A stretch of 64,000 bases of DNA, taken from positions 18,397,432 through 18,461,431 of the forward strand of contig NC_092679.1 of the NCBI RefSeq assembly GCF_964355755.1, read 5' to 3'. The DNA is from Antedon mediterranea (taxonomy: Eukaryota; Animalia; Echinodermata). This document shows, one piece after another, positions 11,490 to 41,400 of this stretch; position 1 is the stretch's first letter; every line of letters starts with the position of its first letter. The notes under the pieces were generated by a model. It was not told the DNA's origin. It saw only the letters and a program-made list of their open reading frames with translations, and made no database searches. Both the position numbers and the translations under genes were made by a program.

Positions 11490-13399
11490 TTTCCACAAAA
11501 GCTAGGCCTAAGCCTAACGATAATTAAAAGACCGGAGGAAATTGAAGCGGAAAAACATGTGTTTTGTTGTATGTACAGGAAATCAGTGAAGCGATTTATT
11601 TGGCTATAGCCCCCTCAGCGTTCGGGTTCACGCACTTTATTTTGTGTGCGTACTCTTAGCACGTTCGGAAAAAGACGCTCTGCGTCTTTTTTTCATGAGT
11701 AAACTTTCCAATTCAGCGCATTTAACAAAAACGGAACTGACACACACCGTCATTACAGTTCAAAACAAGGACAATTAGATAATACGTCCCGACTGCATTC
11801 ACGAAGGTTGTTCAATAATTTGTACAGTACTTCAAAACAAATAATGGTAAGAAGGTTTAGTTTATTATTGTGTTGACTTTATATTCTCACCTTTTGTGTT
11901 TCCAGAGCAGAGTGTATAACTTGGCACCCCTTATAATAATAGTCATGTGTGGTTCAATGGCTTATAAGTGTATAGGTATGTTAGCTAGACATGTCTCTAG
12001 GGATAGGCAGGCCCTAGACGTCCTATGGCGATAACTTATTAGGTCAAGTGATCACATTTTAAAGGAAATTGTATTAACCTAATGTTATTCTTAATTTGGT
12101 GATATTTGAACTCTGCCTACAGGCTTGTCAATTATGTTTTATTATGTCAATGTTATGTTACTTAATGTACTGGAACGGTATAGGCCTATAGGGCATAGGC
12201 CTATCTATATTTTGAAAGATTCATTTAGGCCTAGAATAGACAAGAAAGTCAAAGTTTATAAAATCATATTAATTAATGCACATCCATAAGCCAGTCTTTA
12301 TTAACCTTATAGGATATTGTAATTAGTCAGCTAAAATATTCGTACCCTTGTACAAAATGAGTTACGTAACCTGGATTAAACTCAATGCCTTTGCGTAATC
12401 CCGTTACAAAACACAACTCAGCGTTTCCGAAGTTCGCGGCGTGTCTTCAATAGACTCGTATTCAATTGCGTCTGTTTTGTACTTTTTGTCAATCTCTTTG
12501 TCTCTTTTATTAGTGTGTACTTGTATCTATAAATACCGCTATTATTCGTTGCCAGATTGTGTTGTATTAAAACGGGGTGAAGTTGTGTTTTACCGTCTCT
12601 GCTGGTTTATTTTTATTTGTGCATATTATAATCATGACGGTATATTGTAGAATAAATTATATGTTGAGTTGCTATAATTGCTTTGTTAAACATATCGTGA
12701 GTATTGTTGGGTTTGTGTAGGCCTAATTACTTTAGATATAATTATATAGGCCTACATATTGTGAGTAGCATAGCGAGTAGGACTATGGGTTAGAGAATAT
12801 GTCCATATATTTGCAATGTTTTAAAGTCTGTTAGGATTATGTAAACCCTCGCTAAAAAAACTATAGATTTAATTAAAAGTGTTAAGGCCAATTTACACAG
12901 ACGAGCGGTATCAATGGTAAGCGGAAAACCGCGTAGCTTGTCCCACGTAGAATCTATATCTATCATGAGCGGAAACAGTCCGTCCACTCCGCGATGGTCA
13001 TAAGAAATACAATAGTTTCCACGACTTGTTACTGGTTTTTATGTGTACCCACGTTTCGTGAGTAATGTAACACCACCTCTTTGCAATATTATAGATTAGT
13101 AGTGTTAATTGGTCACCACAAAGAGCTTAATGTATGCATATGGCCACAACATATGTCTTACTGTACGTAACTGCTTTTTTTCCCTCAGTTAATGTTATCT
13201 AGCGTTGTATGAGGTAAATCATTGACAATAGAAAGGAATAATAAACAGCAAAAGCATTTAGACAGTGACAGAGAAAAAACAAAATAATCAGTTTTTATTT
13301 GTAACAGAGCGCCGCATCTGCTGATGCATTGTTGAAATGTTATTAAAATACAATAATGGTAATGCGATGTGTTTCCTTGACAGATGGTGACAACAACTG

Positions 13400-16619: not shown

Positions 16620-19246
16620 TCACGTTATCTTGATTCCGCCCGCAACCGAAAATGTTGAACTGAGTGACCGAAGACTGATGACCCTTCTACGGTTGAATGG
16701 TCGTAAAACCATTGGAAGTTTGTGTTGGAATGTTACCAATAAAAAGAGTATAAAAACACAAATTAGTAATATATAACCCATGGAAACGGCAAACTCTGGT
16801 TCCTAAAATAAACGAGAAAATATTTCAAAAATGATAATTTTATTATTTAACCACACATTCTATGGAAAACTTTGTCCCATTGGCAGAAGGGGCACTATAA
16901 TTTAGATTCTAGACCGAAATTAGTAAAAAGATTAATATTTCGGCACATATGGCGTTTCATACGAAACGCCGACGGACATAAAAAAAGACTGCCAGGGAAG
17001 TATTATTTATTATTTTCATACCTCAGTTTGATTTAGCTGCCATAGTTCTTATTTTTTTTCTTTTATAAGGCCTTAAGGTCAAGCACAGCATCAATTGAAA
17101 GGTAGGGTCAATCGGTCAGTATTGCTAAAACATTACTCTTGGGTCAAAACCAAGCAATAAAAATATTTAAAGGAATAGGGGGGGACCTATAGAAAATTTA
17201 CTCTACTAAAAAAACTAAAATGCTCAGGCAACATTTTGTTCGTCAAGATTTATCTTCATACTTACTTGTGACATATGAAAGTATTGGTGAATTTGTTCCT
17301 CTTTCCATTTAATAGCATAATTAAAAATGGTCTCATATAATGACATTAGGTTCGATACCGTTTCCTACAAAAATGCAGAAATTAAAAATTTTAATTCAAG
17401 CATTTGAAATGAAAATTTGTTTTGCTTATTAATCAGCGTTTGAGCAAAACATTGACCTACCTGTAATTGGTCATTAGGTGGGTTGAACAGATCAAAGCAT
17501 TGCGCTCCTTTGTGGTCCCCATTTCCCCATATTTCCATTGCATATGAAAATGGTATCTAAAACAAACATAATATATAATAATTCAATTCAATTTATTTCC
17601 ACAATATTATAACATACATACTGGATAATAAATGCAATGAAGTAATCATGTGGGAGGGGGAGAGGGAGAGAGTCATATAAGTCAGACCACCCAAGATATA
17701 ACATTATTAAATACGAATAAGAAAAATAAATAGCGAGTTCCAGTTGAAAGGAAAAGGCACGTTGACTATATGTTTTGTGCTCTCAATAGATGTAAACATA
17801 TATTTAAACATATATATATATATATATAGAAACATATATGGCATTTAACTTTCTTTTGTTCAGAATCCCCTTTGTCTTCCTCCTCTTCCCCAACCCCCAC
17901 ACCTCTTTCCACTAGGCCTTTGTACCTTCTTTATTCCAGACATATAGTCAAATATCGTGCCATCAGCTGGGTAATTATTCAACTTGTAACCTATTCCAAA
18001 ATTGAAATCATCTACAGACGCCCTCGCTATCTTGGAGGCTAGGTGTAGTTGTGCGTCCATGTTGTTGGGAACACGCTTCTCCTCCTTAGAGATGGAATCT
18101 GAAGTTTAATAAAATTAAAAAGTTATTCCAAAAAGGATTATGAGGTGCACATTCAAGTACATGCTTATTTTACTTTGTTTTGCCTGTTTTCTGTCTACAC
18201 TGTCAAACTAGTTTGACAAAAAAAAGTGTGATGTGCTCAAATATGGTAGTGATATGCCAAAATATGGTAGTGATATGACATGATCATGCCCATATATGGG
18301 CACATCACATATTTTGTCAAATTAAGTTTGGGAGCTTAATATATGATATGGGAAATAACTATCTTATATTACCTGCAAATGGAAGATATATTTGTCTAAC
18401 CCCAGAATGCAATGACACAAACATATCAAAGTGAAAACGTCTAGTGAGATCACGAAAAACAAAGCTTTCAGGCTCTATAAACGAAAAAAATGTAAATGCA
18501 TTTTATTGATTGAAAACAAACAAAAAGTACTAAAAAGTAGTATTATGAGATAAAAACCAACATGAACCTGAAAATGGGTGTGGCCCTCGGTACTCTTCAT
18601 CATTTGGATCACCTGAGCTTCCTTTACCGCCAAATTCCCAATCAAAGTTACGATCAAGATCAACGCCAACACTCGTGCCACGCCAACAATAATTATTCGT
18701 TCGCTCTATATGATTTCTCCCATCAGGATTAGCTATTACTATAATAAACAAATCGATGTGCGAAAGGACTTTTCTAGAAAATCCTTCCGTACTGGAGCCT
18801 CGAGCTGTGGCTAATCCGCTGGTGAGATTCGTCAATAAATGAAACATACTCTCGATGGGGAGAAACTCCCTTGCATGCTCTCCAAAAGATAATAAAATTC
18901 TAGGCTTATGGTCAGCAATGGTGTACATGTGCGATGCCATCCTGCTGTCCGAGAAATTGGAAATACGTAGTACGTATTGTGAAGCACCATTTCTAGATTG
19001 GTATTCTTCGTAATGCCTAATGTACCCCTGATTTTTAGTTAATAAGTCTTCAATATGATGTTTTATAGTTGATAGATTGTGATAAAATTTGTAGTCTGGT
19101 GTGTATATCTCGCGTCTTGGCTTAACATCACCAGATATTACAAAAGTTGTTAAAAAAATCCAGATATAGAAAGTTGAGGTCAAGGTGTAGATTGAAAAAT
19201 GAACTGTTTTCATATTTTTACGATACAGTGTCCTGAAAGTCACCAT
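16620..19246 (-). CDS. M14-family zinc metallocarboxypeptidase with N-terminal hydrophobic segment and C-terminal transmembrane anchor (exons 18568-19246, 18373-18474, 17926-18098, 17461-17556, 17266-17364, 16620-16802)
   Basis: Zn ligands in GEHARE and SLHSG, plus NPDGR, CWR, GVDLDRNF, YRGPHPFSEPE, GTIFDY and the catalytic Glu in YAMEIWG. The last exon encodes GYILLICVFILFLLVTF. All splice phases are consistent, but the start codon is uncertain (19246, 19213 or an upstream exon near 19670). Confidence 0.9.
18190..18330. mobile_element. MITE family A, copy 3 (right end degraded)
   Basis: CTGTCTACACTGTCAAACTAGTTTGACAAAA...CCATATATGGGCACATCAC, colinear with copy 1. Confidence 0.75.
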
Positions 19247-20401
19247 CGTTTTAACCGGTTTAAGGTGGTACTTCAAGTCAAATAAAGTGTGTTGATTGTC
19301 TTCACAAACTGAAAAGAAACATATTTTAGTATTAAATTTATTAAGAATGTTCATGGGTTATCTAATCCATTTTATACTCCAGATTTAATGAAAATTATGA
19401 TAAATTATTGAATGTTATTAATTATTAATACATGTTTTGCTATGTATATTTCAGCCAGGTCTAAAACGACTTAAAAATTTAAACGATAAGATAATTGATA
19501 TTAACTATAGTCTAGGCTAGGACTAGGAGGTTTGAATACTGAATTAATGTGTGAATGTAATGCCTCCCATGCATAGAAGAAATTGGAATACGATATGTTA
19601 CACGACAGTTATAATATATATACGTATCATCATTTAGTGTGATTATTATTATTTCCATAATGTACTCACCGTCATACACAAACCCAATGTACTCCTCTGT
19701 ATGTTCACATCTTTTTCTAAAAACAAGATTATCGATTTTCGTTTAAATTAGAGAGTTTTACAGAGAGTATAATTGTTTATACTGCTGGTAGAGTACACGG
19801 ACTTATTTAAAGGTTGAAGGTTAAATTTCACGCACCACTAGTAAACAATAACATCCAGGTGTACTCTCACTAAAATTACACACACTTGGCCGAATTGATT
19901 TATTTGATGGGTATGTGTTAAATTTCAATACCTATTTTCTTCAAAATATTAACAATTGCATTTTTTTCAAATAGAGTACTTTATATTTGCTACATAAGCT
20001 CAAATTGTATATTAGTGCTTCATTTAGGCCTTGTGGTTCCTCACCTTATTTGAACTTTAAACCCAATGTTATGCTGTAGTCTTTCTTATCCACTCGTTTA
20101 TACTTAAACTGATAAAAACAATAATGTAATACTGTTTTATAACAAAACAAGAATATTTTACCTGACGCATATGAGTTTTAGGGACATTGTTATTAATACA
20201 TGTAAGTATTTTCTTTGATAATTTAAAACCAATGAGTTAAATAGATCAAATATAAATCAATAGACGACTGGGAATCAGTCTAGCTAATAATTAACATGTT
20301 GACGTGTTCGTTAGTCGTGAATGCAGAAAATAGTGTTCGTGGGAAGAAGATAGCGGACGCTTCTTCTGATTTTAATGTTTACATTCCACTAAATATCGAA
20401 C

Positions 20402-23400
20402 ATGAAATTAATCACATATCTAAGTTTATCATTATTTTTAATTACCTATGTGTCAACAGCTAAATTATCAGATTTCAGACTGTGTACGGATCCGAAATGT
20501 CAGGGTAAGTTAGGCTCTTCGAAGGACACATCTTGTCCTCCCCCACACCGGCAAACACGGTACATCATCGTGTACACGGTTGAATGATTCCGGAAGTCAA
20601 CTTAGCCTAGGTATGGCCTACAGTATTAGATAGACCCCGGTCAATGACTGGCGGAGTTGTTATTATTTATATTATAAAATGTTATCAAGTAAATTACATG
20701 CTGCTGTTGTTATTATTATTAATCAATAACATAATAGAACATCATGCTTTAAAGATGTATTGTCCCCCTGAAAAAATAATTCTTAAAATTGTTTTTGAAT
20801 ATTCTATTTTAATGTAACATAATAGATGGTTATCCACTTTGACAAAAAATTGGATGAAAAAAAAATGTATTTACCTGAAAAAAATGTAATTTAAAGCAAA
20901 AAATGGTCAAATTGGCTGCCAGCTAATGGATTTTTGATTGAATTTTACCATTTATTTTGTCATTTTATAAGTGAAAACATGATTTTTTCTTTTTTTTCTA
21001 TTGAAGTGATTAACTTGATTAAAGCTATAAAATAACATATTCAAAGTCTGATTTAACTAATCTTCATTTTTCATGTTTTTTGGGGACAATACACCTTTAA
21101 CTATTATTAACTATTATAAATGAATGTTAAATTTGATTTATTTACCCTATTTATATCGTTTATTATTTAAGCCATACATATGTGAAGTGTACTTTTGTTG
21201 TAACAAAAATATTGTAAAAAATAAATGTTTGTTTACAAGTGATATATATCTATCTTTACAACTGCTGCAGTTTTTTTTTTCGATTGGATAGGTGGTCAGA
21301 GCAATTTTTCATTGTTCATCTATGATCTATTAGTATTTTGCCGTGTTTGTGTATTTGGTGATTTCATCTCTCCATCTCCTCTTACTTATTGTCTCACTCT
21401 GCTCCTTTTACCATTTCTTGGTTACTATTCTTTGAGCTTCTTGGTCCATTTATTATCTTGAGAACTCTTGTTACAGTATGTTTCCTGCCCATCTCCATTT
21501 CATTTCTTTGATCTTTTCTATAATATCCTTGATGTTTGTTTTTTGTCTCATTTTGGTGTATTTTGTAGTAAAACACATGACTGCCAGTAAAATTTCTATA
21601 CCATGGCCCTGTAGTCATTGTTTATAATATCATTTCTCCTAATTTAATAGAGCTGTCCCTGAATAGAGCTTGGCCATAGTAAAAGCTCTATCTACACTAT
21701 CTAAACTTTATGTGACAAAAAATGTCATGTCCATATATGCATGTTTTTTTCAAATAAAGTTTGATAGTTTAGACAGAGCTTTAGTTCATGTCATGGGAAA
21801 GTGTCTTTTTGAAGCTTGGATCCCACTAGTTTGCAACACTAGGAGATAAGTGCAATGCAAGGGATTTGACCAATTATCAACATGTGCTTACATCATTGCT
21901 AACGTCATTGCGTTGTGTCCTATAGAGAACCAAGCATGATAGAGGTGTTCCCTGAATATTGTCCCAAATGAGGGGTCCCACGTAGGCTAGAGTATGCTGG
22001 TTATGTTATCAAGCTTGTTTTACTTTCCTCAACAGCACCAATATCAAAAGGCAAAGCCCTGGTGACACACATGTCCGCTGATACTGATTTACTAAGTTTT
22101 GAGAAGGGTGACGATATACTAATTTTTTCAAGAGGTGCTGGAATGAAACCTGATCTATGGGGTGGTCAGGTAAATAGTTTTCATAAATATTTATTAAAAG
22201 TATTATGCCACATTTGTACTGTATACGAAAATAAGTTGTTAAGTAGTGAATAATTCCATCAGAGGAAATCTCAGTTGACAAATTATATATATTTATTTTA
22301 TCTTATATCTAATAGGTTGTGGGAAAAGGAGTATTAGGCTATTTTCCTAAGAATTTTTTCCAAGAAACACAAGTATTTAATAGCAATCCAAAGCATGTAG
22401 TTGCTATAACTGTAAGTGTATTTTTTTGTCCTCATAGGCACAGGTATGATTTTTTGGGTGGGGTTTTGATATAATTATGATACAATAATATTGTTAGCGA
22501 AATAGCTAACAAGCATCAAATATGTTTTACTTTAGCACTCAGTACCTGTGCCTCTGTTATATAATAAGAATGAGAATGAGAAAAAGTCGCCCCAACCGAG
22601 ACTCAGACTCGGACCGCCTGCTTGATATGCAGATGTCCTAACCACTGGGGCTTTCATGGTATTGTTCAAACTCGATTGGATAGCGACTCTTTAACATTCT
22701 CGGCGTGGTACGGCGGAACAGCACTAGTCCTCAGTTGTACGCACGCGCAACAGAGATCAAATTGATACGCCCTCATCTTTCAGTATTTTTATTCACGAGG
22801 CGGGATCTCCGAAGAGATACTTTTATATATATAAACACAGCAGGCAAAGAACATTAATTCTAAACCACCCGGTGATATACTGAAATTTAATTAATTAATT
22901 TGAAACGATAAAGATGAGGAAATCTGTGAGAATGATAAAAAGTCGCCCCAACCAAGATACAGGCAAAGAAAAGTAATTCTACACTGCCCGGTGATACTGA
23001 AATTTAATTAATTAATTTTAAACGATAAAGATGAGGAAATCTGTGAGAATAAGAAAAAGTCTATACATATATTACTGTATTAATATTATTTTCAACACAT
23101 CAAATTACATTTTGCAGTATATGTTTAAGAAATTCTGCATACATTAAAAACATCTGGACTTTTATGACAGCATTGAACTACTGTATTGTAATAAAATTAA
23201 TCACAATTGTAATCAGTATGGCTCTGTTTGTAGTATTCAAATAGATAAAGGATAGCTTTGCAAATGATATAAAATCTGACCAAAAAGAAAACCAATGCAT
23301 CATGTTTAAGAGCCTCTGCTGATAAAATTTAATAAACACTATGTTAAAAAAAGCTTAATGTGCTTTTAAAATCCCATGATATTTCTGGAGCTTTGCCCCA

Positions 23401-26400
23401 TAAACCATGGAGGTATGGGCCTCTCCCCACCCTCGACACTACACTCTATAGCTGGCCTGCAAGATATAACAGTCAGACCCATACAATAGTGGAAACCCCT
23501 GCTTTAGAAGTATGTTATTATAATTATATTTAGGTGGTGTAGTAGTTGGTGTAAGAAGAACAATGAACAATAAAAATGTTTGTTATTTACAGCTTCAAAA
23601 GCCTGACATCCCAGTTGTTAATCAACCACCTAAAGAGATACCGCCCACATCAACTGCTGGTGAGCAACAACCAGAGTTACCAACTGGACAGCCTGTCGTT
23701 ATGGCTGAAGGTCAGCAAAGTGAAAAGACAGCTACACAACAAATACATGCACCACATGTGCAAGGAACTCCCCAACAACATCAGGAAACAGAAACAACAC
23801 AACATACTCAAGAAACACATACACAACAACACACCCAAGAAACACTGAAACCACAACATACTGAAGAAGCAAAAATATTACAACATAACCAAGAACCACA
23901 AGAACCACAACTATCACAGCAGGACAATACCAAACATTCCCAAGATGAAAACGCACAGCAACATATCCAACAAGAACAAATACAAGTGCCACAAAACACC
24001 CAAGAAGTAGAGACACAACAACACATACAAGAGGAACAAACACAACAAAATAGACATGAAGAACCACAACTTACCCCAGAAGCAACACTGGAACAAAATC
24101 AAGATGTGCAAACATTGGAACATAAACAAGATGAACCAGCAGTGCAACAAAATCAGGAAACACCAGAACAAACCCTAGAAACACATAAAACACAACAAAG
24201 TAAAGAAGAAGAAACACAACAGCTTAAACAAGAAGAACAAACGGGGCAGGAAGAAAAAGAAGCACTACAGCCCATCGAAGAAGTTCAAACACCAGAAGAA
24301 CACATGGGGCAGAAAGAAGAACCACTACAGCCTAAAGAAGTAGTTCACACACCTGAAGAACAAACAGGGCAGGAAGAAGAACCACTACAGCCCATCGAAG
24401 CAGTTCACACACCAGAAGAACCAACCGAAGAAATCAAAGAATTAGAAAAGATATCCGAGGTAGAGTCAGAAACTGAAACACAACAATCGGGTGAGGACAG
24501 TCCGCAGACTGTCATTGACCTTGATCAAAAGGATCAAACATCTGACGGTGACAAAGATGTAGAAAGCAAACAAACAAATGAGAAGACTGAAGGTTTACCA
24601 GAAATAGAAGATGAAGTAGAATCATTATCACATAAAATACCAGAATCTCCTTCTGAATTGGCTCTTGAGGTCTTGGAACCAGATGAAATTCCAGTAGCTT
24701 CAGGTATGTCTTTTTTATATTAATATAAAACTAACATTTTCTATTAAGTGTAAAAAAAAACCCATTAAAGCATTTTACTCTATTAAGAGTTTTGAAAAGA
24801 AGCCTTGGAACATGTAGGTTTACAATTAACTGCGTTTGCTACACCGTATTATCATCTAAAACTAAGTGTACATCTTGTTTTTGCTTTACTAACTATTCAT
24901 GCTTAAATATATAGTAATGATTTAGTTGCAGCCAATCCAGCAGCAGATGGTAAAACACAGAGCCAGGAGCCTGATAAGGTAGACACTACAAAACCTGGTA
25001 AAATAAATAAACATTCAGATAATAGTGATGTGTTTGTTTCTGATAATCAGATTGTTAGTAAAGACCATCATCATTCATTGGATGATGGCCAAAGAAATGG
25101 TGACCAAAGAATGGTAGATGATTTCTCAAAGTTTGTTGAACAGAAAACTGCACCTAATAATGTCGTTAATTCTGTTTTACAAAACACTGATGCTCAAAAA
25201 ATTAAGCTGGATACACACACATTTGAAAATGAACAGAACTCGAAAGAACACAGTCCATCTGCTGATGTCACAACTAACCCTTCTGAAATTCATGATCAAA
25301 AAAGTATAATTAATAATAAAGGAGTTTGTTCTAATAGTGTGCTGGAGTTCATTATGAAAATATTCCAATGTAAAGTTGAAGAAGTCTTCACTGAGAAATC
25401 ACTGGTTCGTGAGCCTAACATTAAAAGTGAAATTGACACAGTAACCTCAACAATAGAATTAACAGATGAAAAAGCTCCTGATAAAAATGCTGTTGATGTT
25501 AGTGGACTTCTGGAAATATCGCCTTGTCAGTATGTAAGTTTTGAGTCATTTGTCTTTAAGAAGACAATGCTTCGTAAGCCACTTGCACCTTTATTGAAAA
25601 TCACCACAGACAATACTGATGAATTAAACATTGATTCAGATACTACAGTGTCTTCATATTGCAGTAGTGTTTTAGATGAATGGCTGATGTTAAGAAAGAG
25701 ACCATCTTCAATATGTTTATTGCCTGATACTTTATTAGATAAAAACAAGGAATCACAATCTGATGATAAACCAAAAGTAGAACCAGCTAAAGAGGAACAG
25801 GAACATGTGTCAGTTAAAGAAACAGAATCAGAAGTAGAACCAGCTAAAGAACAGAAACATGTGCCAGTTAAAGAAACAGAAGTAGATTCTGCTAAAGAAC
25901 AGGAACATGTGGCAGTTAAAGAAACAGAATCAGAAGTAGAACCAGCTAAAGAACAGGAACATGTGCCAGTTAAAGAAACAGAATCAGAAGTAGATTCCGC
26001 TAAAGAACAGGAACATGTGGCAGTTAAAGAAACAGAATCAGAAGTAGAACCAGCTAAAGAACAGGAACATGTGGCAGTTAAAGAAACAGAATCAGAAGTA
26101 GAACCAGCTAAAGAACAGGAACATGTGCCAGTTAAAGAAACAGAATCAGAAGTAGATTCCGCTAAAGAACAGGAACATGTGGCAGTTAAAGAAACAGAAT
26201 CAGAAGTAGAACCAGCTAAAGAACAGGAACATGTGTCAGTTAAAGAAACAGAATCAGAAGTAGAACCAGCTAAAGAACAGGAACATGTGCCAGTTAAAGA
26301 AACAGAATCAGAAGTAGAACTAGCTAAAGAACAGAAACATGTGCCAGTTAAAGAAACAGTATCAGAAGTAGATCCAGCTAAAGAATTGGAACATGTTTCA

Positions 26401-29400
26401 GTTAAAGAATCAGAAGTAGATTCAGCTAAAGAACATGAAAATGTGTCATTTAAAGAATCAGAAGTAGATCCAACTAAAGAATTGGAACATTTGTCGAAAT
26501 TAGAAGTAAAAGAATATCCAGAATCAGAAGTAAATAAAACAGAAACCAAACAAGAAGAAGCATTACATAAAGTAAAACAAGAAGTCAAAGAACCAAAAGT
26601 AAAGATAGAACCAAAACCTGATGTGCCTACACAAATTCATAATGGTATATGCCCTAATGATTTTCTTTCTTGGTTAATATCAGCATTTCACTGTGATGTC
26701 TTGGAACATGTTCAGTCTTTTAAGCAGTTAATGAATGGTACCAATTCAAATTCTTCTTTACATTTTTTAGATATTGTTCTTTCAACATGTCCTAGCCATC
26801 ATGACTTTCCACAAGCTGATTTAAATAGTCATTCTTCTGTGATTAGTATTCCTGCACATTTAAGAAAAGAGTTGTCAAAGTATGATCTTTCAAGAAAAGA
26901 TGTTTGTCATTTCTCTTGCTTCCATTATTTTTTACAGTTTATAGGTCGTCAAGATTTGTGCTTCTCTTATGATATTCCACTTCAGATTGATAATAGTCCT
27001 TCCTCTTTCACAAAAACCATCAGTCCAAAACCAATTAGCATGCTAATGACATGTCCCTCTGTCTTGAACCTATTTTATTCAGAAACAAGAATGTGTCCTT
27101 TTGTCAAAAATTATTCAAAATCAGCCAAACAGGAAGTTGTCTATACTACTGTTGGTGATTGTGTCGATTACATGATTGATTTAATCCTTCCGCAAGTTTG
27201 TCTCACTAGAATGTCTGACAAATTTGAATTTTCAACTGATAAGGAAACAGTCGCAGAAACAACAGCAATTTCAGCAGCTAAGTTGAAAGATCCAAATGTT
27301 TGCAAAACTATTGAATTTCAACAGGTTGTAAAAGAGTTGTATCAGCCAGTTTGCTCTGCAGAAATTAAAGTTCAAACTAAATATTTACCCACACTGTTTA
27401 AAGACAACTTAATAAAACCTGATACAATTGGCTCACAAAGTACATGTCCTAATACCGTACTAACAATATTTCAACCAATTGTCCATAAAATGTGTTCTCC
27501 AAAAACTGCAAACATTAGAGAAACTGTTAAAGCAGAGGATACCACACCAACATTGTTAAACAAAATCTTAATCAAATCTGATATTAAATCTATTGCAATT
27601 GGCCCACAAAGGACATGTCCCAACACTGTACTAAAAGTCTTTCAACCAATTGTCCATAAAATGTGTTCTCTGAGAGATCATAACCGTTCAGAAATGGTTA
27701 AACCAAAAGATACTACACACAAATTACAAGACATCTCAATCAAACCTGATACTAAATCTATTGATACCATTGGGTCACAAAATGTGTGTCCCAACACTGT
27801 ACTAAAAGTCTTTCAACCAATTGTCCATAAAATGTGTTCTCTGAGAGATCATAACCGTTCAGAAATGGTTAAACCAAAAGATACTACACACAAATTACAA
27901 GACATCTCAATGAAACCTGATACTAAATCTATTGATACCATTGGGTCACAAAATGTGTGTCCCAACACGGTACTAAAAGTCTTTCAGCCAATTATTGTCC
28001 ATAAAATGTGTTCTCCGAAAGATCTTAACCAATCAGAAACTGTTAAACCAAACAATACTAAACAAATATTGTTAAACAAAACCTTAATCAAATCTGATAC
28101 TAAATCTATTGATACCATTGGGTCACAAAATGTGTGTCTCAACACTGTACTAACAGTCTTTAAATCATTTGTTTATAAAATGTGTTTTCTGAAAGAAAGA
28201 TCTTATCCTAAACAAATTGTTGAACTGAAGGATTACTCTAAACAAGAAATTAAAGCTAATCAAAAAAAATCAGTTTGCCCAAGTGTTATGCTAACCTTTC
28301 TACAGCCATCTAAAAGTTTACAATGTAAAATTCCATTACCAGAAGCACATTTATCACATTGTTGTGTCAAAACATTTTCAAGCAGTATATTAAACATGTT
28401 TCTTCCTCAAAACAAAACAAAATGTAAAGCTAAAGATAGAAAACCAAGTACAAATTTCTATCCCTCTAGTAACTTTGGCTCCTCAATTTCTGTTATTAAC
28501 TTATTTGTACCTAAAAATAAGTTGGTATGTCCAGTTCGTCAACAGAACATGAAAACTAGTGTGGGCATTCCAACTTGCCCTAATATGGTATTAGACATTT
28601 TTATACCAATGCATAAATTAAAGTGCCCAATAAGGACTAACAAGACAGACGACACATTTGATGCTTCCAAAACTCATTCATGTCCAAACACTATGTTAGA
28701 ATTGTTCATGTCCGCAAATAAATTGATATGCAAAAATCTATTTTTTAAGGAACAAAGTCAAACCTATGGATCCACATCTTGTCCAAATTTTGTTTTTGAT
28801 TTGCTACTTCCACTATATAAAATGAAATGTGAAGCAAAGAAAAATATGAAACCTACAGAAGAATCACCATTTTGTACAAATGACGTATTAGAAATTTTAT
28901 TGCCTATGCAAAAATTGAAATGTAAAGTAGTTTCTCCTTTTTCTGGCAATCTTTCAACCAGTTGCCCAAATGAAGTTTTAGAAATCTTGCTTCCATCTCA
29001 CAAACAAAAATGTCTGATTGCATTTATTGACGTGATAAAAGAGAATAGTTGCCCGAATTTTGTTTTAATCATGTTCCTTCCTAATCATAAACTGAAATGC
29101 TTAATACCAAAAGCATCAGAACCAATTGAAGATGTAGACTGCCTCAATTACTTTCTTGAAATGTTTCTTCCATCCCATAAATTAAAATGTTCAATGAGAA
29201 ATTATTTGCCAGAGGTCTCTTGTCAAAATACTGTTCTAGATATGTTTCTTCCAATACACAAATTAAAATGCCTTAAAAAGGTATCTTTGTTAGGAAACTC
29301 TTGTCCAGACACTGTTCTCCAAATGTTTCTTCCATCATCTAAATTAGTTTCCATACCAACAGTAATGTCAAAGGTGGACTTGAACTATTGTCAAAACACT

Positions 29401-32400
29401 GTTCTCCAAATGTTTCTGCCTTCTCATAAATTAGTGTGTAAAACTCCACCCATCCAAGTTTCTCTTTGCAATGATGCAATTTTAGAGATATTCCTTCCAT
29501 TACACAAACAAAAATGTTTAGTTAAACAATCTAATAAGCCTGTATACCAAAATGATAAATGTGTGAACTATATTTTGGCGTTACTTGTGCCTGAAAATAA
29601 ACAAGTCTGCAAGAACAAAGTAATGGCAGAAAATGAGAATCACTCAGATACAGATGAAATTTGTATGAACATCGTTTGGCTTTGGCAACAAATTGCAAAT
29701 TCTAAGCCGATGTGCAATGTAGTACATTCAGACATAGAAATGACAATGCCTGTAAAAAAGAAGACTGAAAATGCAACATCTGTTGCCTCCGCCGTAAAAA
29801 TAGACTTGGCTGATAAAGAGTTTATCAGCAAAGATCCCTCCGCAATGAAAATGGACTTATTAGATGCCTCCGCAGTACAAACAGAGCCTAAAGAAACTTC
29901 ACCTATTGACCAAAATATCTTACCAGTACATCCAAAGACATCAGCGACTAATGGCAAAGATCCCCCGACAATAAAAATAGACTTTGATGCTGGTAAAGAT
30001 TCCTCGGCAGTGCAGACAGAGGCTAAAGAAATATCAACTCCTGGTCAAGATAATCTAACAATACATCAAAAGAAACCAGAGTCTAAAGATCCAAAATCGG
30101 TAGGAAAAGTGAACTTGGATGTGTCAGCAGTAAAGGCAGAGCCTCAAGCAACATCTCTTGTTCAAGATATTGTACCAGTACATTCAAAGACTCCAGAATC
30201 AACCATGTCTAATAATGATGTCTCAGCAGTACCTTCAAAGACTATAGAAGTAGTGTCTGTTGATCAGGATGTCTCAAAACACCATCTAGTAACTGTGGAA
30301 GAAACATCTAACAATCAGGATGGCAAATTAGTTAGTCCAAAGAAAGATAAAAGAACATCCTCTGCTCCATCAGTAAATTCAGAAAGGCGGAAAAAATCTG
30401 TTTGGAAAACCCACGATATCTGTTTAAATACATTTTTAAATATGCTGGATCTAAACCCATATTGTATAGAAACCTTGGAAACTAAACCTTCCAGAAATCA
30501 GATTATGCCACCAACATTTGATGATCTAGATCTTGACAACATGAAGGTATATATTTCTGATCAGTTCAATGATACTGATGTCAATCATCATGAGTTGGTA
30601 GTGACATCACACTATTCCATGCCACCTACATCAAATGCCCTTATTTGGCAATTTGAAAATCCCCAATGTTTACCAAAGAAAAAAATGCTGTACACAAATC
30701 ATAATGTAGTTGTCACTCCTTATATGGAAGACAGACTAAAGCCAAGACATCTCAAGGAACAAACTGCTGTTAAAAATGGTGAAGGAAAGAATGCTGATCG
30801 TGGTAGGAAAATAAACAAATTACAGCTTATTCTACATCACTTTTACATCCCTCTCCATTCCACCATCCAATTTCTTATTTGTTACCCAGCCTCCCTTATC
30901 TGCCTTCCATCTCTCTACCTACAGTACTCACTTGAAAGCATGGTTGTCTATTTTGAACAACTTTTTTTACTTAACTGAAGAATTGCTTTTGTGGCATCAA
31001 TCTTATTTCTGCACTTATAAAATTAAATTTTTAATCTCCCTTGTTTTAGATTGTTTGTAGGACTTTGCAGTGCCTTCTCTCTCATTAAATGCTTTTTTTT
31101 TATTCCAGACAGTTTTACAGCTTTTGCACATATTTTGTGTTTCTAACTTTTTGCCATTTGAAGTTCTAGATCTGTGGTGGTGGTGGATTTAGTATGAAAG
31201 CAAAGCTTGGTTTAAACTATTACTTTACTTGGCCATAGTACTCTCAAACAGGTTCAAAGAGTACCTGGACAATGCATGCTTTTAAACTTGTTCATAATTT
31301 CAATACTGTTGTAATGCTTTCTTTATTACAGGTGTTGTATACATTTCATTTTTCATTTGAAAATTGTTAATGAAATATTTAAATAAACATTTCATTGGAA
31401 CATTTTGTAATGTTGTCTATTGAATTAATCAAACAATAGAGACTTTAGGAATGGTGACACATTTTACCCTTACCTCATATAACAAATAATTTCCAATGAG
31501 GTGTGTATTTAATGTAAATTTATCATTGTTTTGGGTTTGCCTTTGTTAATTGTGCATGTTTTTACAATAACTTCTTTATTATGCTCATAAAAATAGTATA
31601 ATAATTTTAGTTGAGTTATGTTGGTTTATTATTTCATGTTTACTATTTGAATTGATTCATAATTTAATTTTACATCTTTGTATTTGTGGGGTTTGATTGA
31701 TTTTTGTTGAATTGATTTTTTTTTGTTATCAAGAGATAAAATGTTTGATTGATGTAGAAATACGAATACATTTCTTAAAAAATGTAACTATAAATTTAAA
31801 ATGATTTTTTATACAAACAGTTGCATTAATACAGTAACCTAAAATGAGTCTTATTGTTTAAAAACAAAATAATAGAACTCATGTTATTGTGCTATTTTTG
31901 CATCAATTTTAACATTTTATATCTTTTCATAATTTGTTTTAAAGACATTTATTCGATTGCGGTTTGCATATTGTGCAGTCAATTACTTTTTTCATGGTGA
32001 TGGTGTTTTTTATTTATCTATTGTTTCGTGAACTATAGTATGCATTTGTTTCTCTGTAGACTCAGAAGGCCTAGCCAGTGAATCACACCCACTAGAGTCT
32101 GAAGCTGGAATGAAAGGACCACAAGATAAGGTAAGAGATGAGCAATTTGAAAACAATATTCACAAGGAACAGCATGAGGTACAAGGTGGAGCGCATGTTA
32201 CTTTGGGCCATTCAGAAGGTGGTAGTGATATTGGAAATTTACAACCAGGAATTGTTCAAGTAGAGTCTGGTGTACCACCAGCTCTTGATGAAAGTGTTGA
32301 TGATGTTGCAGGAAAGAAAGAAAATGTTGAACAAAATCCAGTTTATGTAAAAGAACAAGATAATGAATTTGTTGACAATAAAGATCAAGAGAGTGAAGAT

Positions 32401-35400
32401 AATGTTGAAATGAAAGATGTTATTAGTGATTTTAGAGAAGAAGAAGTTCTTGATGAACACAAAGAGGCAGAGAATATAGAAGATCCAGCAACTCATCTTC
32501 AAAATGAGGTTTATAGTGAAATTAATGAGAAAGATGGAATAGAACCTGTATCAATAACCTTAAATGATTCTGAGAATCTTTTACACAAAAATGATGATAA
32601 GGATGAAGAAGAAAATAAAAGTTGTGAAGAAGAAAGACGCATCAAAGAAAGAAGGGTTGAAGAAGAAAGGTTAGAAGAAGAAAAAAGAGGTGAAGAAGAA
32701 AGACGAGGAGAAGGAGAAGAAAAACAGGACAAAGACAGACTAGAAATAGAAAAACAGGAGCAAGATAGACTAGAAAGAGAAAGACAAGAGAAATTAAAAC
32801 GTGAAGAAGAAAGACAGAAGCAAGATAAACTAGAAAAAGAAAGACAAGAGCAATTAAGACTGGAAGAAGAAAAACAGAAGCAAGATAAACTAGAAAGTGA
32901 AAGACAAGAGCAATTAAAACGTGAAGAAAAAGAAAGACAGGAGCAATTAATACGTGAAGAAGAAGAAGAAAAACTGGAACAATTAAGACGTGAAGAAGAA
33001 GAAGAAGAAGAAAAACGGGAACAATTACGACGTGAAGAAGAAGAAAGACAGGAGCAATTAAGACGTGAAGAAGAAGAAGAAGAAAGACAAGAGCAATTAA
33101 GACATGAAGCAGAAGAAAGACAGAAGAAATTAAGACGTGAAGAAGAAAGGCTTCTAGAAGAACAAAGATTAGAAGAAGAAAAGAGAATCGAGGAAGCAAG
33201 AATTCTTGAAGAAGAAAGAAGACTTGAGGAGGAAGAGGAATGGTTAAAATCAATGATTGAATCAGTAGATGCAGAGGATGAAAAAAGACTAAATGAGGAA
33301 ATAGCTGAAGAAAATTGGCTAAATTCTATTGTAAGTGAAGGGAACCATGACGAAGATTACGAAGATGAGGAAGAACGGATAAATAAGGAAATGCTTGAAT
33401 ATGCTAAAGAAGAAGCTAGACAAAATGCTGAAGAGATTTTGAGAGAAATGAAAAATATGGAATTTATCAGTGAGTCTGACACAGATGAAGATGACTACAA
33501 CAAAAATGTTGGGGTTACTTCAAATGATCCTGAAGAAAATGAAAAATCAAAAGAAGACATTAGCAAAGAAAGCAGCCAGCCTGACAACAAGATGGAACAA
33601 GCTGCTAAACGTAGACTTGTCAAAAACCTGTTAAAACCAAAGAGACATAAACAAAGACGTAAAGATGATGTTCACAATGCTGGGGATGATGTCAACAATT
33701 CTTTGGAAAGTCAAGTGCACAGCACTGAACAAACAATACAGACTGAAGAGAGTGGTGAACAAAATAGTATGAAAAAAAATGATTTTCAGTTTGGTGTTGG
33801 CTTAAAACAAATACCAGAAGAACAAGAAAAAGAAAACCCAGAGATTGATTTAAGTACCCAACAACAAAAGCAGCAAAAACAAGAAACTGAAGAGAAAATA
33901 GATTTAGTTCCAGAATCCCTACCAGATAAAATTGGAGATATAAATACAAATCAGAAAAATCCTTCTGATTCTTCAAGTAACCAAAATCTTAATTTCGACA
34001 AAATTGAAAAAGAATTTATTGAGTTTAATGAAAGGAAAGACAATATAAAGGAAAAAAATTACATTCTTGAAGATAATGAAGATAAACCTTTGGAGTCTGA
34101 TAGTACAGATGATTTTTACTTTGACTCTGAACAAAAAGAAAATACAGCTGACCAACAAGGAAACTCTAAAAAAGATGTTGATTTGGAATCACATAATTTA
34201 GAAGAAAATCATGCTGAAGAAATTGTTGAAACAGAAGTCAATTTAGATAAAGGAGTAAAAACTAAAACAACTGAGATTTTGGAATCAGATGTTGAAGTTG
34301 AATCAGATGTTGATTTAGAATCAAATGTCGATTTGGAATCAAATGATGATTGGAAATCAGAGGGTGATGACATTGATATTGATAAAGAACCACAAAGTAA
34401 TTCCAAAGAAAATCATGTAAAAGAAATTGTTGAACCAGAAGATGATTTAGCTAAAGGAGTAAAAACTGAAACTGAAATTGTTGAGGAACCAGAAAGACAT
34501 TTCCAACAAGAGGATGTAAAGGAAGTTGAATCAGATTTGGTAAGTGAGGGTTTTGTAGAGGGCCTAAGCGATTCACAAGCTGTTGAAGATCAGGTAGAGC
34601 AAACTAAAAGAGATGAAGACATATATGTGGAACAAGAAGAAAATGAAGTAGATAATGACATGGAAAATGGCAACAGACAGAAAGAGCCAATTCAACCCAA
34701 TATATCAGCAATCCATAGTGTTCCCTTGGAAATCGAAAGAAACACAGCCTCTCCAAAAATACCCGAAGTTCATACTAATAGTGACCCGCTAGTAGTTGCT
34801 CGAGTTGGAGATGTGCTAAAACCAAATCAGAAGAATGTATTGCCAGATGCGACTCCACAGAGGTCATCTCATCAGGGTGATTCTCATGGTCACAGTGGTC
34901 AAGATCTGGAATCTGATACATATGTGGTTCACCGAAAAAGAACTCTTAAGGTGTAGTCTTGATCTCCTGTTCTTTTGGATGTTGCTCTGCCTGATTGCCA
35001 ACGTAATAGTCCTAATTGCTTTTAATCAAACTAACATCAAATATATAAAACAAAAGTCTGATCTGCAAAGAGTTTTAAGTCTGTCAAATGAAATAATTTG
35101 TAAATGATTCTCAGCGAACATTTTCATTTGGAATCTTAAATATTTGAAACATCGTTTCATGCTACTATTTTAGCTACCATTTATGATTTTGTAGCATCAT
35201 TTCACTATGCTACACTTTGTGAAAATGTTCCCTGATTATGTTAATTCTGCATGCATCTGACCATAAATTTAGTTTATGCAACTAAATTAAGGAATTTACC
35301 AAGCAACTAAATTGAATTGCAATAATTAATAATAAATTTGTATTATATGTATACAGTACCAAGCAAACTGTAAAAGCACCTGGCATGCATTACTAATCTA

Positions 35401-38400
35401 TTGTGGCATAATAATGGAAAATGGATGTTTTGTTTTTTATTTTGTGCATTTAGGTTACCACCATACTGGCTATGTTAAAATATAATATTGTACAATATAT
35501 AATGGTCAGTTAATATTGTTCTAATATTTTTTAATTTTCTCATTGGATTTATATATTAACTATCACTGTTATGTAATTTTAATCTTAACGACACTATTAT
35601 CTAAAGGCTCCTACCAATTCTGCGGTCAAGAAAATTCCAAACAAAAATGTTTTCAAAATTTTACATAGGCCTTTTTATTATTATTATAATGTCTATAATT
35701 GTATTTTAAATTAATTTAAATTTGTGCTTAATAATATTCTAAAAGAAATTGATAACATTAGTAATTTATGATATGCTGCAGTGACTGGTAGATATGATTT
35801 TAGATTAAATCTTTTGCATGTACCAATCCATTCAAATTATAATGTATTGTTGTAAAACAGCTGCACACTCCACATGCAATTAACCTGTTTGTACAGTATG
35901 CATGATTAATTAGTATTATGAATATGCATGAACTAAAGTACTTGAATTTAAGTTCTGCTCTGTCGATTTAGAGACTTTAGATTTCTTTAGTAGCATGTTC
36001 TTTAGTTTATTTTTATTTTACATTTTTAGCTGAGAAAAAAGTAACAAAATCAGATAACTAAAATTAGATAGATTTTTGACAACAAAATTAATTTTGCATC
36101 ATAAATGGAAAAGTACTCTAATAATTGCTAAGTATTATTAAGATTTTTTAGTTTTGTTAAACTTTTTTAATTGTCATCCGAAACTAATTATTCTATATTG
36201 CAGTTACTGCAGTAACTACATAATGATTTGCAAAAGAAGGTTAAAGAGTAAATAAACGTTGGACCTGGTTCCTTATTCTTTCCTTCATCATTGCATTCAT
36301 TTCTGCTTTATTTCTAGAAGTCAGTTGAGGAGAACCTAGAAGAAGAGGATGACAACAAACCTGTTGTAAATGATACAACGCTGTATGATGTTTGGTTAGA
36401 GTTGAAAGCTGGTATTCGTCCAGGTGTCCAGAGCTTAGTAGGTCAATTAAACCCTTTACTTGAGCAGGTAAAGTTCCACAATTTGTTCCTATAAGTATCA
36501 CATTGCACTATTGTTTGAAGTTTTAAGTAAAACCTTTTATAAAGGTTTTTTTTCAATTATGTAGTATTTTTTTAGCAGTGGCGTAACAGCTACTTCATGG
36601 ATGGATAAAAAATGTATATAATCTTTGTTATTTAGATGTTATTATTTTCTACATTTTATGATAATCCATTTTTGTTAATTTTTTGTCTTTCAGCTTCCAG
36701 ATGATATGCACAAACAGTTGATTTCACCTGACTTGTGGGGTTATCCATGGATTGCAATACTTTTTGCACAGTCATTTGTTGTATTTATGTTCATAATGTT
36801 GTATGGCTGTGTAAGTACAACTTTTATATGTTTATATTTACACAAACATTCTTGATGCAAAATAATTAACTGTAATCTAAGTTATACAATTTATTAACTT
36901 TGTTTCTTTTATAACACTATAGTGTCTTACTATAATTCACCAAATTTCTGAGTGTCTGTTCCAGCTTTATTCAAAGACTAGAGGTAGCAAACTTGGTGGG
37001 TGGGTGCAGCTCAGTATAAGAATAATCTGTAGATAGTTTGTTTGTCTGACCTTTATCCTTGCTCTTTATCTTTAATATTTATACTACTATGCATCCTAAT
37101 AGTTAATTCTTTTTTACTTCTCAGATGTGTAGATCAAGAGCATCTAGAAGTAAGTATCTTTGCTTAGAAGATTTGCTTTGTTTTAAAAAACTTTACCTAC
37201 AGTATGCCAATATTTTAGCCAGTATGTGGAATAATCAATGCAAATGTTATACTGGTTTAATTAAGACATTGATGGTTTCCATTGTTAATCAATTATTTTA
37301 TGTTTTATTTGTAGAGTTAAAGGTGTTACATGAGGCCGAGTTGTTAAACCAAGAAAATGCCAAAGAAAATTTATATGACGCTTATGAAAACATGGCTTCT
37401 GTGGTAAGTTTTGGTCTTGACATGACTGGGTAGCTATTTAGCATACACTCTTGCAGTGTAGATAGGCCTATACTGTCATTTTCCTCTATACCACATATAT
37501 ATTTTATTTATATTTATTTTTTTTGTAGGCTAAAGAGTACCATCAGAAGTTCAATGACTTAGAAGAAAAAAGTTTGGATTTTGATAATAAAATTAAAGAA
37601 GTTGAGGTTTGTACAAGTTCAATGTAACTGGTTTTTCATCTAATATTTCAAAGAATGAGCATTATAATATTGTAATGAATTCAAGTTGAAAAATAAATTT
37701 ATATATATTTGTTCATCATTTTATTTGCAGAATGAGAAATTGGAAGTGGAGTTAGAACTGAAAACTGTTCGTGAAGAACATTCAGATTTGTACAAGCAAC
37801 ATGAAGATACAGTAGAAGATTTACAACAGCACCAGCAACATATAGCAAAACTACAGAGCGATATTGATTCAGCTTCTAACTTAATTCAAGATCTTAAATC
37901 ATCAATTCAACAGGTAATTTACAACTACCTAGAAACAAGAGAATATAAATTAGCGGACTTTCAATTTGCAATAACCTAGGAACTTGTTACGTCATGTTAA
38001 TTCATTTTGCGCGTGCAGGGATATGGTGACATGCTCCTAGATTCTGTGATACATGTTTTGGCGAATTCTAGTTCCAGACAGTGTCAAAAAACAATAATTA
38101 CGTGCAAATCCTAATTGCCGTGGGTCCGTGGAGGACCTAATCTGAATTTCCTCAGTTTCCAGTTAAGCTTGAGGACAAATATAAATACCTTTACCTTAAT
38201 TGAAACACCCTAACATGCAGGTCCAACGTCCTAGGTCTTCTCAATTCTCAATTACTTCCACCTAACTAAAACCGTTAAATCTATTAAACCGTTAATACTA
38301 TTAAACCGTTATAACTATTAAACCGTTATAACTATTTAGCCGTTAAATCTATTAAACCGTTAAATCTATTAAACTGTTAAACACTATTAAACTATTAAAA

Positions 38401-41400
38401 GCTGTAAAAAATTATTAAACCGTTAAAAACTATTAAACCGTTAAAAACTATTAAACCTTAAAACTATTAAACCGTTAAAAATGATTAAACTGTTAAAAAC
38501 TACTAAACCGTTAAAAGCTATTAAACCGTTAAAAACTATTAAACCGTTTAAAACTATTAAACCATTTAAAACTATTAAACCGTTACACTATTAAACTATT
38601 AAAAGCCGTAAAAAATGATTAAACCGTTAAAAACTATTAAACCGTTAAAAACTATTAAACCGTTAAAAACTATTAAACCGTTAAAAACTATTAAACCGTT
38701 TAAAACTATTAAACCGTTAAATCTACTGGACCGTATAAGTCTATTAAACCGTTAAAAACTATTAAACCGTTTAAAACTATTAAACCATTTAAAACTATTA
38801 AACCGTTAAACACTATTAAACTATTAAAAGCCGTAAAAAATGATTAAACCGTTAAAAACTATTAAACCGTTAAAAACTATTAAACCGTTTAAAACTATTA
38901 AACCATTAAATCTACTGAACCGTATAAGTCTATTAAACCGTTAAAAACTATTAAACTATTATTTTTCTTGTGTATAGCTTGAAGATCAGCTAAAAAATAG
39001 TATAGAAAAAGGGGCTCAACTTGAGCTTGATTTGGGAACTGCTCAAGAACAAAATGAATTATTGGAAGAAACCAAACAGCAGGTATTTTGAAAGAAAATA
39101 TTTCTTTTTTTTTAATGTATCTTATTAAAATATTCTTTTATTTACTTACTTAATTTGATTTTATTATTTCGTAGTATGCACAGGACACGGATGGCTGGAA
39201 ACAAAGGTATGTATTTAAAATATATATATATATATCCAATCTGCAGACAGTACTGTTTCGATCTTATTAGATTTCGTCAGTGTAGCTCCGGTTTCAAAAT
39301 GAAATGTACCGCAGAACTGGCACAATATATAAGCTGAGCCAGGTGTGCGGGACATGGTACACAGATTTATAAACAGTGCACAAGCTCAACGAGCGATATA
39401 TATATATATTTTCCTAAATATTATAACTAAGTTGTATAAATTATTAGAGTATTAATAAAATTGAGAAATTTGAATACACTTTTTGTTTTCTTCTAAAAGA
39501 CATTCTGAAGTTCAAAATGAGATGGATAGGTTGATTGAGCAACAGACAGAATTTAAGGAAACTATCAAAGAAAAAGAAGATGAAAATGAGGTATTGTATA
39601 ATCGGAAATAGAATTGTATATGCCTACTTGAACAAAGCTCGAACCCCGACCTCCAGATAACTAACCTGCCATTCATACTGTCTACACTATCAAACTTGTT
39701 TGACAAAAAAAGTGTGATGTACCCAAATATTATAGTGATATTCCCAAGTATGGTAGTGATGACATCATCATGTCCATATTTGGGCACATCAACTTTTTTT
39801 GTCACATCAAGATTGATAGTGTAGACAGAACGTTAGTTTCAACGGTAAAATAGATTCCTGTATGCAAATACATAAACAAACAGATGTCTATTCTACTCTT
39901 TTTATTTATGCAAATAAATAAACAAACATAATAGAATAGACATCTGTATGCAAATTAATTGTGCATATAATTATGCATAAACAAAACAAGGTATAATCAG
40001 GAATAGAATAAAATCTAAATAGACTATTTAATATTGATTTGAAGACTTTTGAATAATTTAAAACACATTTTTGTTTGTATTTGTAGGTTTTGAAGGACTG
40101 TCTTGTTCAATTAAAAGGCCTTGAAGCTGATGAGGAAGATGGAACAGGTAGGAGAACCAGAGACAAATATATTAAATTATGTCTTGATTTCTGTCATGAT
40201 TTTGTGATTTGCGATAAGAGTTGATTCACAGCTTGTTCCCGCTGGTAAATGCTTTCTCTTGCATTTCAAATAACTAGTTATCTAGTAATAATCGCATATA
40301 TTCTAAAAATTAATTTCCAGAAGGCGATTTAGAAATGAAGATTCAACAGTTAATGGATGTTTCTAAGATCAATACTCGGTTGGCAGCGACAGAAGAAGAG
40401 AGACAGCGGCTGGAGAACAGCCTACAAGAACAAACGTCTCAAAGACAACTTCTAGATAGTAAGATTTTTAAGTTTATTTAGTGTATCAAGTAAAATAGAT
40501 AGATCAATGATATAAGTCAATGAATCAATCATGGCCTAGGTTGTACCATAGAGGTATAAAATCTAATTTTATACCTCCATGGTTGTAATACTATTCACCT
40601 AAGACTGTAATTTCCTAAAAAAAGGCAAGTTTGTTTTATGACACACGAAGAGCTACTCATAAAAAAAAAGTATGAAGTAAGGTAAAGGAGAGTTAAAGTC
40701 GTTAAATATCATGAGCTTCATAAAGTGATACTTAACTCTATCTGGTCTGCAAGCAAGATGATATATAATTATAATCTAGAAAACTGTTTAGAACCCCTGT
40801 CTTATATTACTTTTATGCACCTTTGCCTGCCTCTGTTATCCCACAGACCAAGTAGAAGATTTAAAGCTACAACTGAAAGGATTAACTAGTGAATTTAGCA
40901 AAGTTCAAGGAGCACACAATCAAGCCGAATCAAAACATGAGGTATTACAGCAGTACTGGAAGGAACGAGAGACAGAACTGCAAAGGTATGCTGATAATAT
41001 GTTTATATACTCGTCTTTATTCTACTTCTCATAGAATCATCAAGTTCTTCTGTACTTATTATTTCTTCATTGTTTTCAACAGGAAACTAGGAGTAACCGA
41101 CGCCAAAAATATTGAATTAAATCAACAGTTAGATGATTATAGGAAAAACTCTACAGATGCTCAAGAAGATTCTGCAAACTATAGGTAATTGCATTGGTTT
41201 GTGTACTAGCCTAATGGGCTCCCAAATTTCAATATGTTCTTGCTCAGATAATTATCTTTTTCAAATATTATCTTCATTTTTCTTTTTGATGTCTTGTGTA
41301 AACAATTTTAAATACATGTTGGTCACGTAAAATCCGATATGACATATGTTGATAAACCAAATAGGAAAAACTCTACAGATGCACAAGAAGATTCTGCAAA

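Follow-up and report, generated by a model that had tools for sequence, protein, structure and literature searches.

A giant, likely optional exon of TANGO1 in Antedon mediterranea encoding an array of Cys-paired repeats

TANGO1 is a protein that aids the exit of bulky cargo, such as collagen, from the endoplasmic reticulum (ER). Here, a 64,000-nucleotide stretch of the genome of the crinoid Antedon mediterranea (assembly GCF_964355755.1, contig NC_092679.1, positions 18,397,432 to 18,461,431; this whole stretch is called the window) was analyzed. It contains a TANGO1 gene with a long open reading frame located between two lumenal exons, which we call exon A and exon C. This frame, called exon B below, encodes a repeat with paired cysteines. 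Taken together, the data tip slightly in favor of exon B being an optional TANGO1 exon, which would add about 20 disulfide-closed helix-Pro loops to the protein, and these may act as cargo stickers in the ER lumen.

In those parts of the sources that were available, invertebrate TANGO1/MIA3 proteins are described as having a signal peptide, a MOTH domain, an acidic lumenal region, a membrane segment, coiled coils and a proline-rich end (PMC10119292; bioRxiv 10.1101/2023.09.21.558805), and the lumenal part of human TANGO1 as consisting of about 1000 mostly disordered residues (bioRxiv 10.1101/2023.09.21.558805). The isoforms described in the available parts are TANGO1L, TANGO1S and minor variants (PMC5007089, PMC11034787). 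The Antedon form that skips exon B fits this layout, while the locus differs from it by an extra 1957-codon Cys-rich repeat frame in the lumenal part. The vertebrate MIA2/TALI/cTAGE5 locus yields, by exon choice, both lumenal-only and membrane-anchored products (PMC4862334, PMC7829582, each available in part). This MIA2 versus TALI choice supports the plausibility of a soluble lumenal product of the TANGO1 family in Antedon. However, the Antedon choice would sit in TANGO1 itself and in one giant exon, and the available parts of the MIA2/TALI sources mention no Cys-paired array.

The TANGO1 gene

The exons of the gene were assigned from the sequence and from the assembled contigs of run X1. No run is recorded as RNA, and X1 was taken as RNA, the single such run and represented by contigs only, from its GT..AG joints, at least 14 of which lie downstream, up to position 41983.

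20402-20504, plus strand: exon 1, with the start codon, a signal-peptide-like hydrophobic stretch and the first Cys pair of the MOTH domain (by eye)
22036-22169, plus strand: exon 2, the SH3-like core of the MOTH domain (PDB and Pfam searches)
22316-22411, plus strand: exon 3, the last part of the MOTH domain (flanked by AG and GT, with the frame running on from and into the neighboring exons)
23593-24703, plus strand: exon A, Gln/Glu-rich and lumenal, with a phase-1 donor (in an X1 RNA contig)
24932-30978, plus strand: exon B, the open frame with the repeats, 5871 nt (1957 codons) to the donor at 30802, or on to the stop at 30976-30978
32060-34950, plus strand: exon C, large, acidic and lumenal, with a phase-1 acceptor (joined to exon A and to the downstream exons in X1 contigs)
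36318-43467, plus strand: downstream exons, with the membrane segment (36694-36810), a coiled-coil-like region and a proline-rich end (X1 joints to 41983; domains by eye)

The reading frame is open from the ATG at 20402 through exon C, and the first Met is followed by 19 mostly hydrophobic residues, which by eye resemble a signal peptide. The top three PDB matches of the 44-aa exon 2 were human TANGO1 (7r3m, E 0.049) and MIA (E 0.11 and 0.13), each of them weak individually, and the Pfam match to SH3_2 (E 0.14) was under its cut-off; the matches point to a MOTH/SH3-like domain, as expected of TANGO1/MIA3. The spliced X1 contigs span 23593-41983, interrupted at a repeat at 33 kb, and none of the X1 joints listed connects exon 3 with exon A. 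The host gene has TANGO1 anatomy, with the layout of acidic lumenal region, membrane segment, coiled coils and proline-rich end. Exon A contains no Cys in 370 aa and 23% Asp/Glu, exon C one Cys and 31% Asp/Glu, and exon B 61 Cys in 1956 aa.

Two other repeats were observed in the gene. A Glu/Arg/Gln-rich charged repeat, single-alpha-helix-like by eye, is located in exon C (32600-33240), and an 18-bp minisatellite of 39 copies (38269-38961) lies inside an intron.

Copies of the repeat and selection on its motif

An earlier note on this DNA, made from the letters alone, had quoted copies of a Cys-paired motif inside TANGO1. All of the quoted copies were recovered in place, in the plus-strand frame 24907-30978, which stays open over 2023 codons (at its composition, log10 P for chance is about -67) and contains 63 Cys. 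The repeats in this frame are as follows.

25327-27354, plus strand: seven looser Cys pairs, with 12-17 residues between the Cys, located 5' of the arrays (by eye, mostly below threshold)
25775-26463, plus strand: Cys-free acidic tandem repeat with units of 18 aa (54 bp, 12.9 copies; tandem-repeat analysis)
27420-28196, plus strand: 57-aa units (171 bp, 4.5 copies), in which the Cys motif occurs five times (tandem-repeat analysis and profile)
28276-29715, plus strand: dense Cys-paired array of 16 copies, the 12 most regular of which have linkers of 9-18 aa
30421, plus strand: eighth looser Cys pair (by eye)

The note had counted about 15 closely spaced copies at 28.27-29.72 kb, and the dense array indeed contains 15 copies detected by the repeat profile and one C-x16-C copy at 29662. 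The five copies that it had placed in the 57-aa repeats were also found, starting at 27445, 27616, 27787, 27958 and 28135 and spanning 27445-28185. The proposed total of about 25 stood for 20 firm copies, but not for the looser outlying ones, which are without statistical support: two of these eight pairs reach 5 bits (11.1 and 9.1), and three get domain E-values of 8.5-26. Judged by these scores, the tally is 20 firm copies, one probable and eight unproven.

The exact C-x15-C spacing occurs 17 times in the frame, versus a mean of 1.9 and a maximum of 9 in 2000 whole-frame shuffles, and versus a mean of 2.1 and a maximum of 8 when only residues 840-1610 were shuffled. The profile made from 18 copies found 20 strong domains, all in the frame 24907-30978; no other frame of the window gave anything similar. 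Because this count is partly circular, as the profile was built from these copies, leave-one-out scoring was added. In this test all 17 non-redundant copies scored 11.9-46.3 bits, while the best scores of 200 shuffled frames had a mean of 1.4 and reached 15.4 at the highest. Across the 17 copies, positions 6 and 9 are always hydrophobic, Cys1 is kept in 15, Cys17 in 16 and Pro11 in 15, position 3 is Asn, Asp or Ser in 16, position 14 is Lys in 14, and His13 is present in seven. At residues 1153-1173 the spacing is C-x19-C instead of C-x15-C. Residue 1188, which is Ser in the reference and Cys in run X1, would in the latter form pair with residue 1208, giving a C-x19-C like that of the neighboring copy.

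The suggestion that the motif is kept by selection while the linkers drift agrees well with the substitution pattern. In the 12 most regular cores the proportion of synonymous differences (pS) is 0.78, which is near saturation, versus 0.29 for the proportion of nonsynonymous differences (pN). The identity at codon positions 1, 2 and 3 is 0.61, 0.79 and 0.44 in these cores, and 0.30, 0.30 and 0.39 in the ungapped flanks, and the Cys codons of the cores are mixed (TGT/TGC 7:5 and 6:5). Hence, the motif has been preserved as protein and not as a DNA repeat, and on this sequence evidence the repeat is almost certainly protein-coding and selected. The first and second cores of the 57-aa units differ by four synonymous and two replacement changes. 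The variants in the frame leave the Cys, Pro and Phe of the cores intact, and none of the nine indels listed falls in the frame, all of them being intronic; the three runs compared here represent two samples, as X2 and X5 are one sample, possibly the source of the assembly.

The 57-aa units have a further property. In each of them (e.g., at 27737-27786) the linker before the core contains an out-of-frame DNA copy of the core, with 36 of 48 columns identical. The score of this off-frame copy was matched by two of 5000 codon shuffles and by none of 3000 other pieces of the frame, and when off-frame motif copies were scored with the profile of the main array, they did not rise above codon shuffles. 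A duplication accompanied by compensating frameshifts is thus the likely origin of the 171-bp unit.

The earlier expectation that the repeat belongs to no described family was upheld by the searches. The repeat gave no Pfam family at E<=1, no PDB sequence at E<=10 and no match in the ESM Atlas (best 0.77 in one search, none in the other), and a fold search of the 30-aa model gave none of 48161 chains at Z>=2, which is a weak result for such a short model. By these comparisons, the repeat appears to match no catalogued repeat or domain family. A profile search of protein databases, which the note had proposed, was made with the 18-copy profile against 1.84 billion representative proteins and returned three matches. 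The sole true one, XP_071963317.1, is the RefSeq model of the same locus; the second, a simple repeat of 10-aa units that each carry one Cys, and the third, a repeated plant PPR-like stretch, were rejected on reading. A search of literature listings found no report of such a repeat or of such a TANGO1 exon.

Splicing and predicted products of exon B

Two further features bear on how exon B could enter the transcript and how it could end.

24887-24931, plus strand: branch-point consensus and candidate acceptors (predicted), of which the best-scoring AG ends at 24931, in phase 1 and in frame
30803-30978, plus strand: 57-codon hydrophobic tail, whose use depends on read-through of the donor at 30802, followed by ATTAAA at 31022 and 31084

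The splice sites were scored with a matrix built from the gene's 18 other introns. The acceptor at 24932 scores 6.8 bits (-0.5 to 14.9 for the 18 other acceptors) and lies 39 bases 3' of the branch-point consensus and eight codons after the beginning of the open frame. Its phase, 1, is the one that the phase-1 donor of exon A requires. The donor at 30802, also in phase 1, scores 6.4 bits (others 0.7-11.2), is one of two so high-scoring in the frame, and would keep the frame into the phase-1 acceptor of exon C; the sequence directly after it is pyrimidine-rich. These predicted sites are phase-compatible with an optional TANGO1 exon. From the acceptor to the first Met 59 codons are open, as are 43 of 5804 intron windows of equal length (chance about 0.01), and therefore splicing from upstream is favored over a nested start. 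We consider it probable that exon B is spliced to the front end of TANGO1, and the repeat frame is likely an optional exon, either cassette or terminal.

Two products can be predicted. With the donor at 30802, a membrane TANGO1 would be lengthened by 1957 lumenal residues, while reading through to the stop at 30978 would give a 2496-residue protein made of the putative signal peptide, the MOTH domain and the array, which would lack the membrane segment and the cytosolic half. Past the donor, 57 codons stay open, as do 60 of 5846 intron windows (0.09 by local composition), and the X1 contig 30481-30914 runs across the donor unspliced. Read-through is slightly likelier than exit by the donor, and both may be used. 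The tail was also considered as a membrane helix, and this was rejected, as its best 19-residue hydropathy was a borderline 1.64. In the secreted and membrane forms of the IgM heavy chain, an internal donor competes with read-through to a poly(A) site, resulting in a soluble or an anchored product. The analogy with the two exits of exon B, which are predicted, concerns the splicing logic only.

Other features were noted elsewhere in the window. An open frame matching zinc carboxypeptidase M14 (18530-19357, E 1.3e-18) lies on the minus strand, opposite to TANGO1 and separated from its upstream end by about 1 kb. Further features are the exons of a Churchill gene (5332-5910; Pfam PF06573, E 2.4e-19), a 503-codon open frame at 13391-14902 with no Pfam match above the cut-off, and a 12.6-kb satellite at 45131-57739, in which the basic unit is 89 bp long and the higher-order periods measure 195, 285 and about 480 bp.

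Predicted loops and their possible roles

When a single unit was folded with the 18-copy alignment, a helix was predicted at motif positions 4-9, with a core pLDDT of 88. Folding of 387 residues without an alignment gave a pLDDT of 34.6, which is unusable, and two copies of one unit folded together, with the alignment not used, scored 0.02, which is evidence neither way. The earlier idea of disulfide-stapled helices is thus borne out as far as a short predicted helix in the core. The fixed spacing inside the units and the variable length of the linkers favor pairing within units. The ER lumen oxidizes Cys pairs, and if the array is lumenal, this position and the fixed spacing make a Cys1-Cys17 disulfide within each unit highly probable.

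In each unit, Asn3 would cap a helix of two turns (positions 4-9), Pro11 would break it, and a return strand would be closed by the Cys1-Cys17 bond, with positions 5, 6, 8, 9, 10 and 15 forming a hydrophobic patch. As the unit is too small to bury six hydrophobic side chains, each bead would expose a sticky patch, and about 20 such beads on flexible linkers could provide avid binding of low specificity. Located in the ER lumen after the MOTH domain, the loops may act as weak hydrophobic stickers that bind multivalently to bulky cargo, which is the simplest partner because the array would follow a cargo-recognition domain. Exon B might be used in a tissue, stage or cell type with a special secretory load. 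The cargo-sticker role is the tentative part of this proposal, and we consider it possible but somewhat doubtful.

Several observations speak against an optional exon with such a role. The most direct is the X1 contig in which exon A is connected to exon C (24701 to 32058); this contig bypasses the whole repeat frame and is unbroken at both exon ends. Hence, the repeat is absent from the ordinary TANGO1 of the X1 sample, and it is not a constitutive lumenal exon; the earlier placement of the repeat inside TANGO1 is right as to its position between exons A and C, but the observed spliced RNA skips it. Among the X1 joints listed, none enters or leaves exon B. X1 contigs cover much of the frame (24969-25402, 26305-26948, 28334-29016, 29033-30479 and the contig across the donor), but other X1 contigs lie over intron DNA (23192-23622 and about 35.2-35.7 kb), and therefore the contigs over exon B may derive from DNA or from unspliced RNA. 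The X1 depths (61-72 for spliced contigs, 6-9 for exon B, 4-5 for the two intron pieces) were not used for an inclusion level, and neither was the missing X1 cover of the introns flanking exon B taken as evidence of inclusion. At the 5' end, an AG ending at 24914 is closer to the branch point; it is out of frame and leads to a stop at codon 484. RefSeq models the frame as a separate protein starting at Met69, and this model, which matches the frame in 958 of 970 residues, leaves it through a 52-nt GT..AG gap and ends at residue 1021.

No homologue was found in other species by the protein, profile and metagenome searches. The repeat profile detected no sea-urchin protein among the representatives, and no protein of 1112-5000 residues containing the main array was found: none of 2170 candidates of 1112-3541 aa matched residues 1120-1610, and none of 1258 candidates of 3542-5000 aa matched residues 840-1610. 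None of 86 pattern matches in metagenome contigs was confirmed, and an exact look-up of nine Met-to-stop products of the frame and of one neighboring frame gave none of 10. The search for longer proteins with the MOTH exon (none of three candidates) was uninformative. These blanks are weak, because unannotated exons are absent from protein collections, where even the main array of this species is missing. The present-day variants in the frame 24907-30978 (nine replacement, two synonymous) have a ratio like that in the transcribed exon C (seven and one), and therefore do not show constraint. Finally, three copies have missing or shifted cysteines (in two the first Cys is moved or absent, and in one, at 29302, the second is Ser).

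The RefSeq annotation raises an alternative, which we regard as rather improbable, that a separate gene is nested in a TANGO1 intron and starts at Met69 (25111), in which case its product, having no signal peptide, would be cytosolic, with reduced, lipidated or metal-bound cysteines. It would explain the start of XP_071963317.1 and the lack of a joint from exon A among those listed for X1, and the context of this ATG is good (purine at -3, G at +4). However, the 59 open codons reach back from Met69 to an in-phase acceptor, and both ends of the frame are in the phase of TANGO1. Moreover, the RefSeq model relies on a 52-nt intron with poor sites (27970-28021; donor 1.2, acceptor -4.0) inside a tandem repeat, and its truncation is probably an annotation artifact. 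Exon B could also be a formerly used exon, now silent and beginning to decay, which its skipping in X1, the nine replacements among 11 variants, the Cys lost in some copies and the frameshifted motif remnants in the 57-aa linkers would fit. This is very improbable given 2023 codons without a stop, no listed indel in the two samples and the equal variant ratio of exon C.

Other alternatives concern what the loops do. The main alternative to cargo binding is self-association or a structural role of the secreted form: the exon would be optional, but the loops would stiffen or cross-link a lumenal or secreted scaffold, for instance through disulfides between chains, and the unanchored form would be a matrix or granule protein. 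The high copy number, the variable linkers, the unpaired cysteines, the open tail with the contig unspliced across the donor, and the lack of a KDEL-like end are consistent with this. On the other hand, the fixed spacing within units suits monomeric loops and the frame-keeping donor suggests that a membrane form also exists, so we consider a scaffold unlikely. The earlier note had also offered Cys/His metal sites, and the H-x3-C end of the most regular copies does resemble a zinc finger. Zinc fingers (C2H2/C2HC) have four conserved Cys/His and a Cys-x2-4-Cys knuckle, whereas in this repeat the two cysteines are 16 apart, His13 is present in seven of 17 copies, at most three ligands are available per unit, and there is neither a Cys-x2-Cys knuckle nor a Pfam match. 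Together with the oxidation of Cys pairs expected in the ER lumen, this makes zinc binding hardly credible.

The reading that remains slightly favored is that of an optional TANGO1 exon with cargo-binding loops. A wider conjecture, which seems improbable to us, is that echinoderms have kept the giant exon since the split of crinoids and sea urchins, roughly 480 million years ago. They would then switch between the ordinary form at ER exit sites, a giant membrane form and a soluble, MOTH-fronted form with the loop repeat, and the array would replace HSP47, which is absent from invertebrates, as a cargo chaperone for collagenous-tissue or gamete secretions.

In the available parts of the literature, cargo recognition by invertebrate TANGO1 without HSP47 is presented as unsolved (PMC10119292). 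What the lumenal part of TANGO1 does is called elusive (PMC7829582), and current models depict this part as a disordered tether that lacks distinct features (bioRxiv 10.1101/2023.09.21.558805). The Antedon feature may be limited to one phylum. If the exon is used, it would add to TANGO1 an uncatalogued type of repeat and possibly a soluble form, and its approximately 20 selected, likely folded loops would provide a discrete module for tests of cargo binding.

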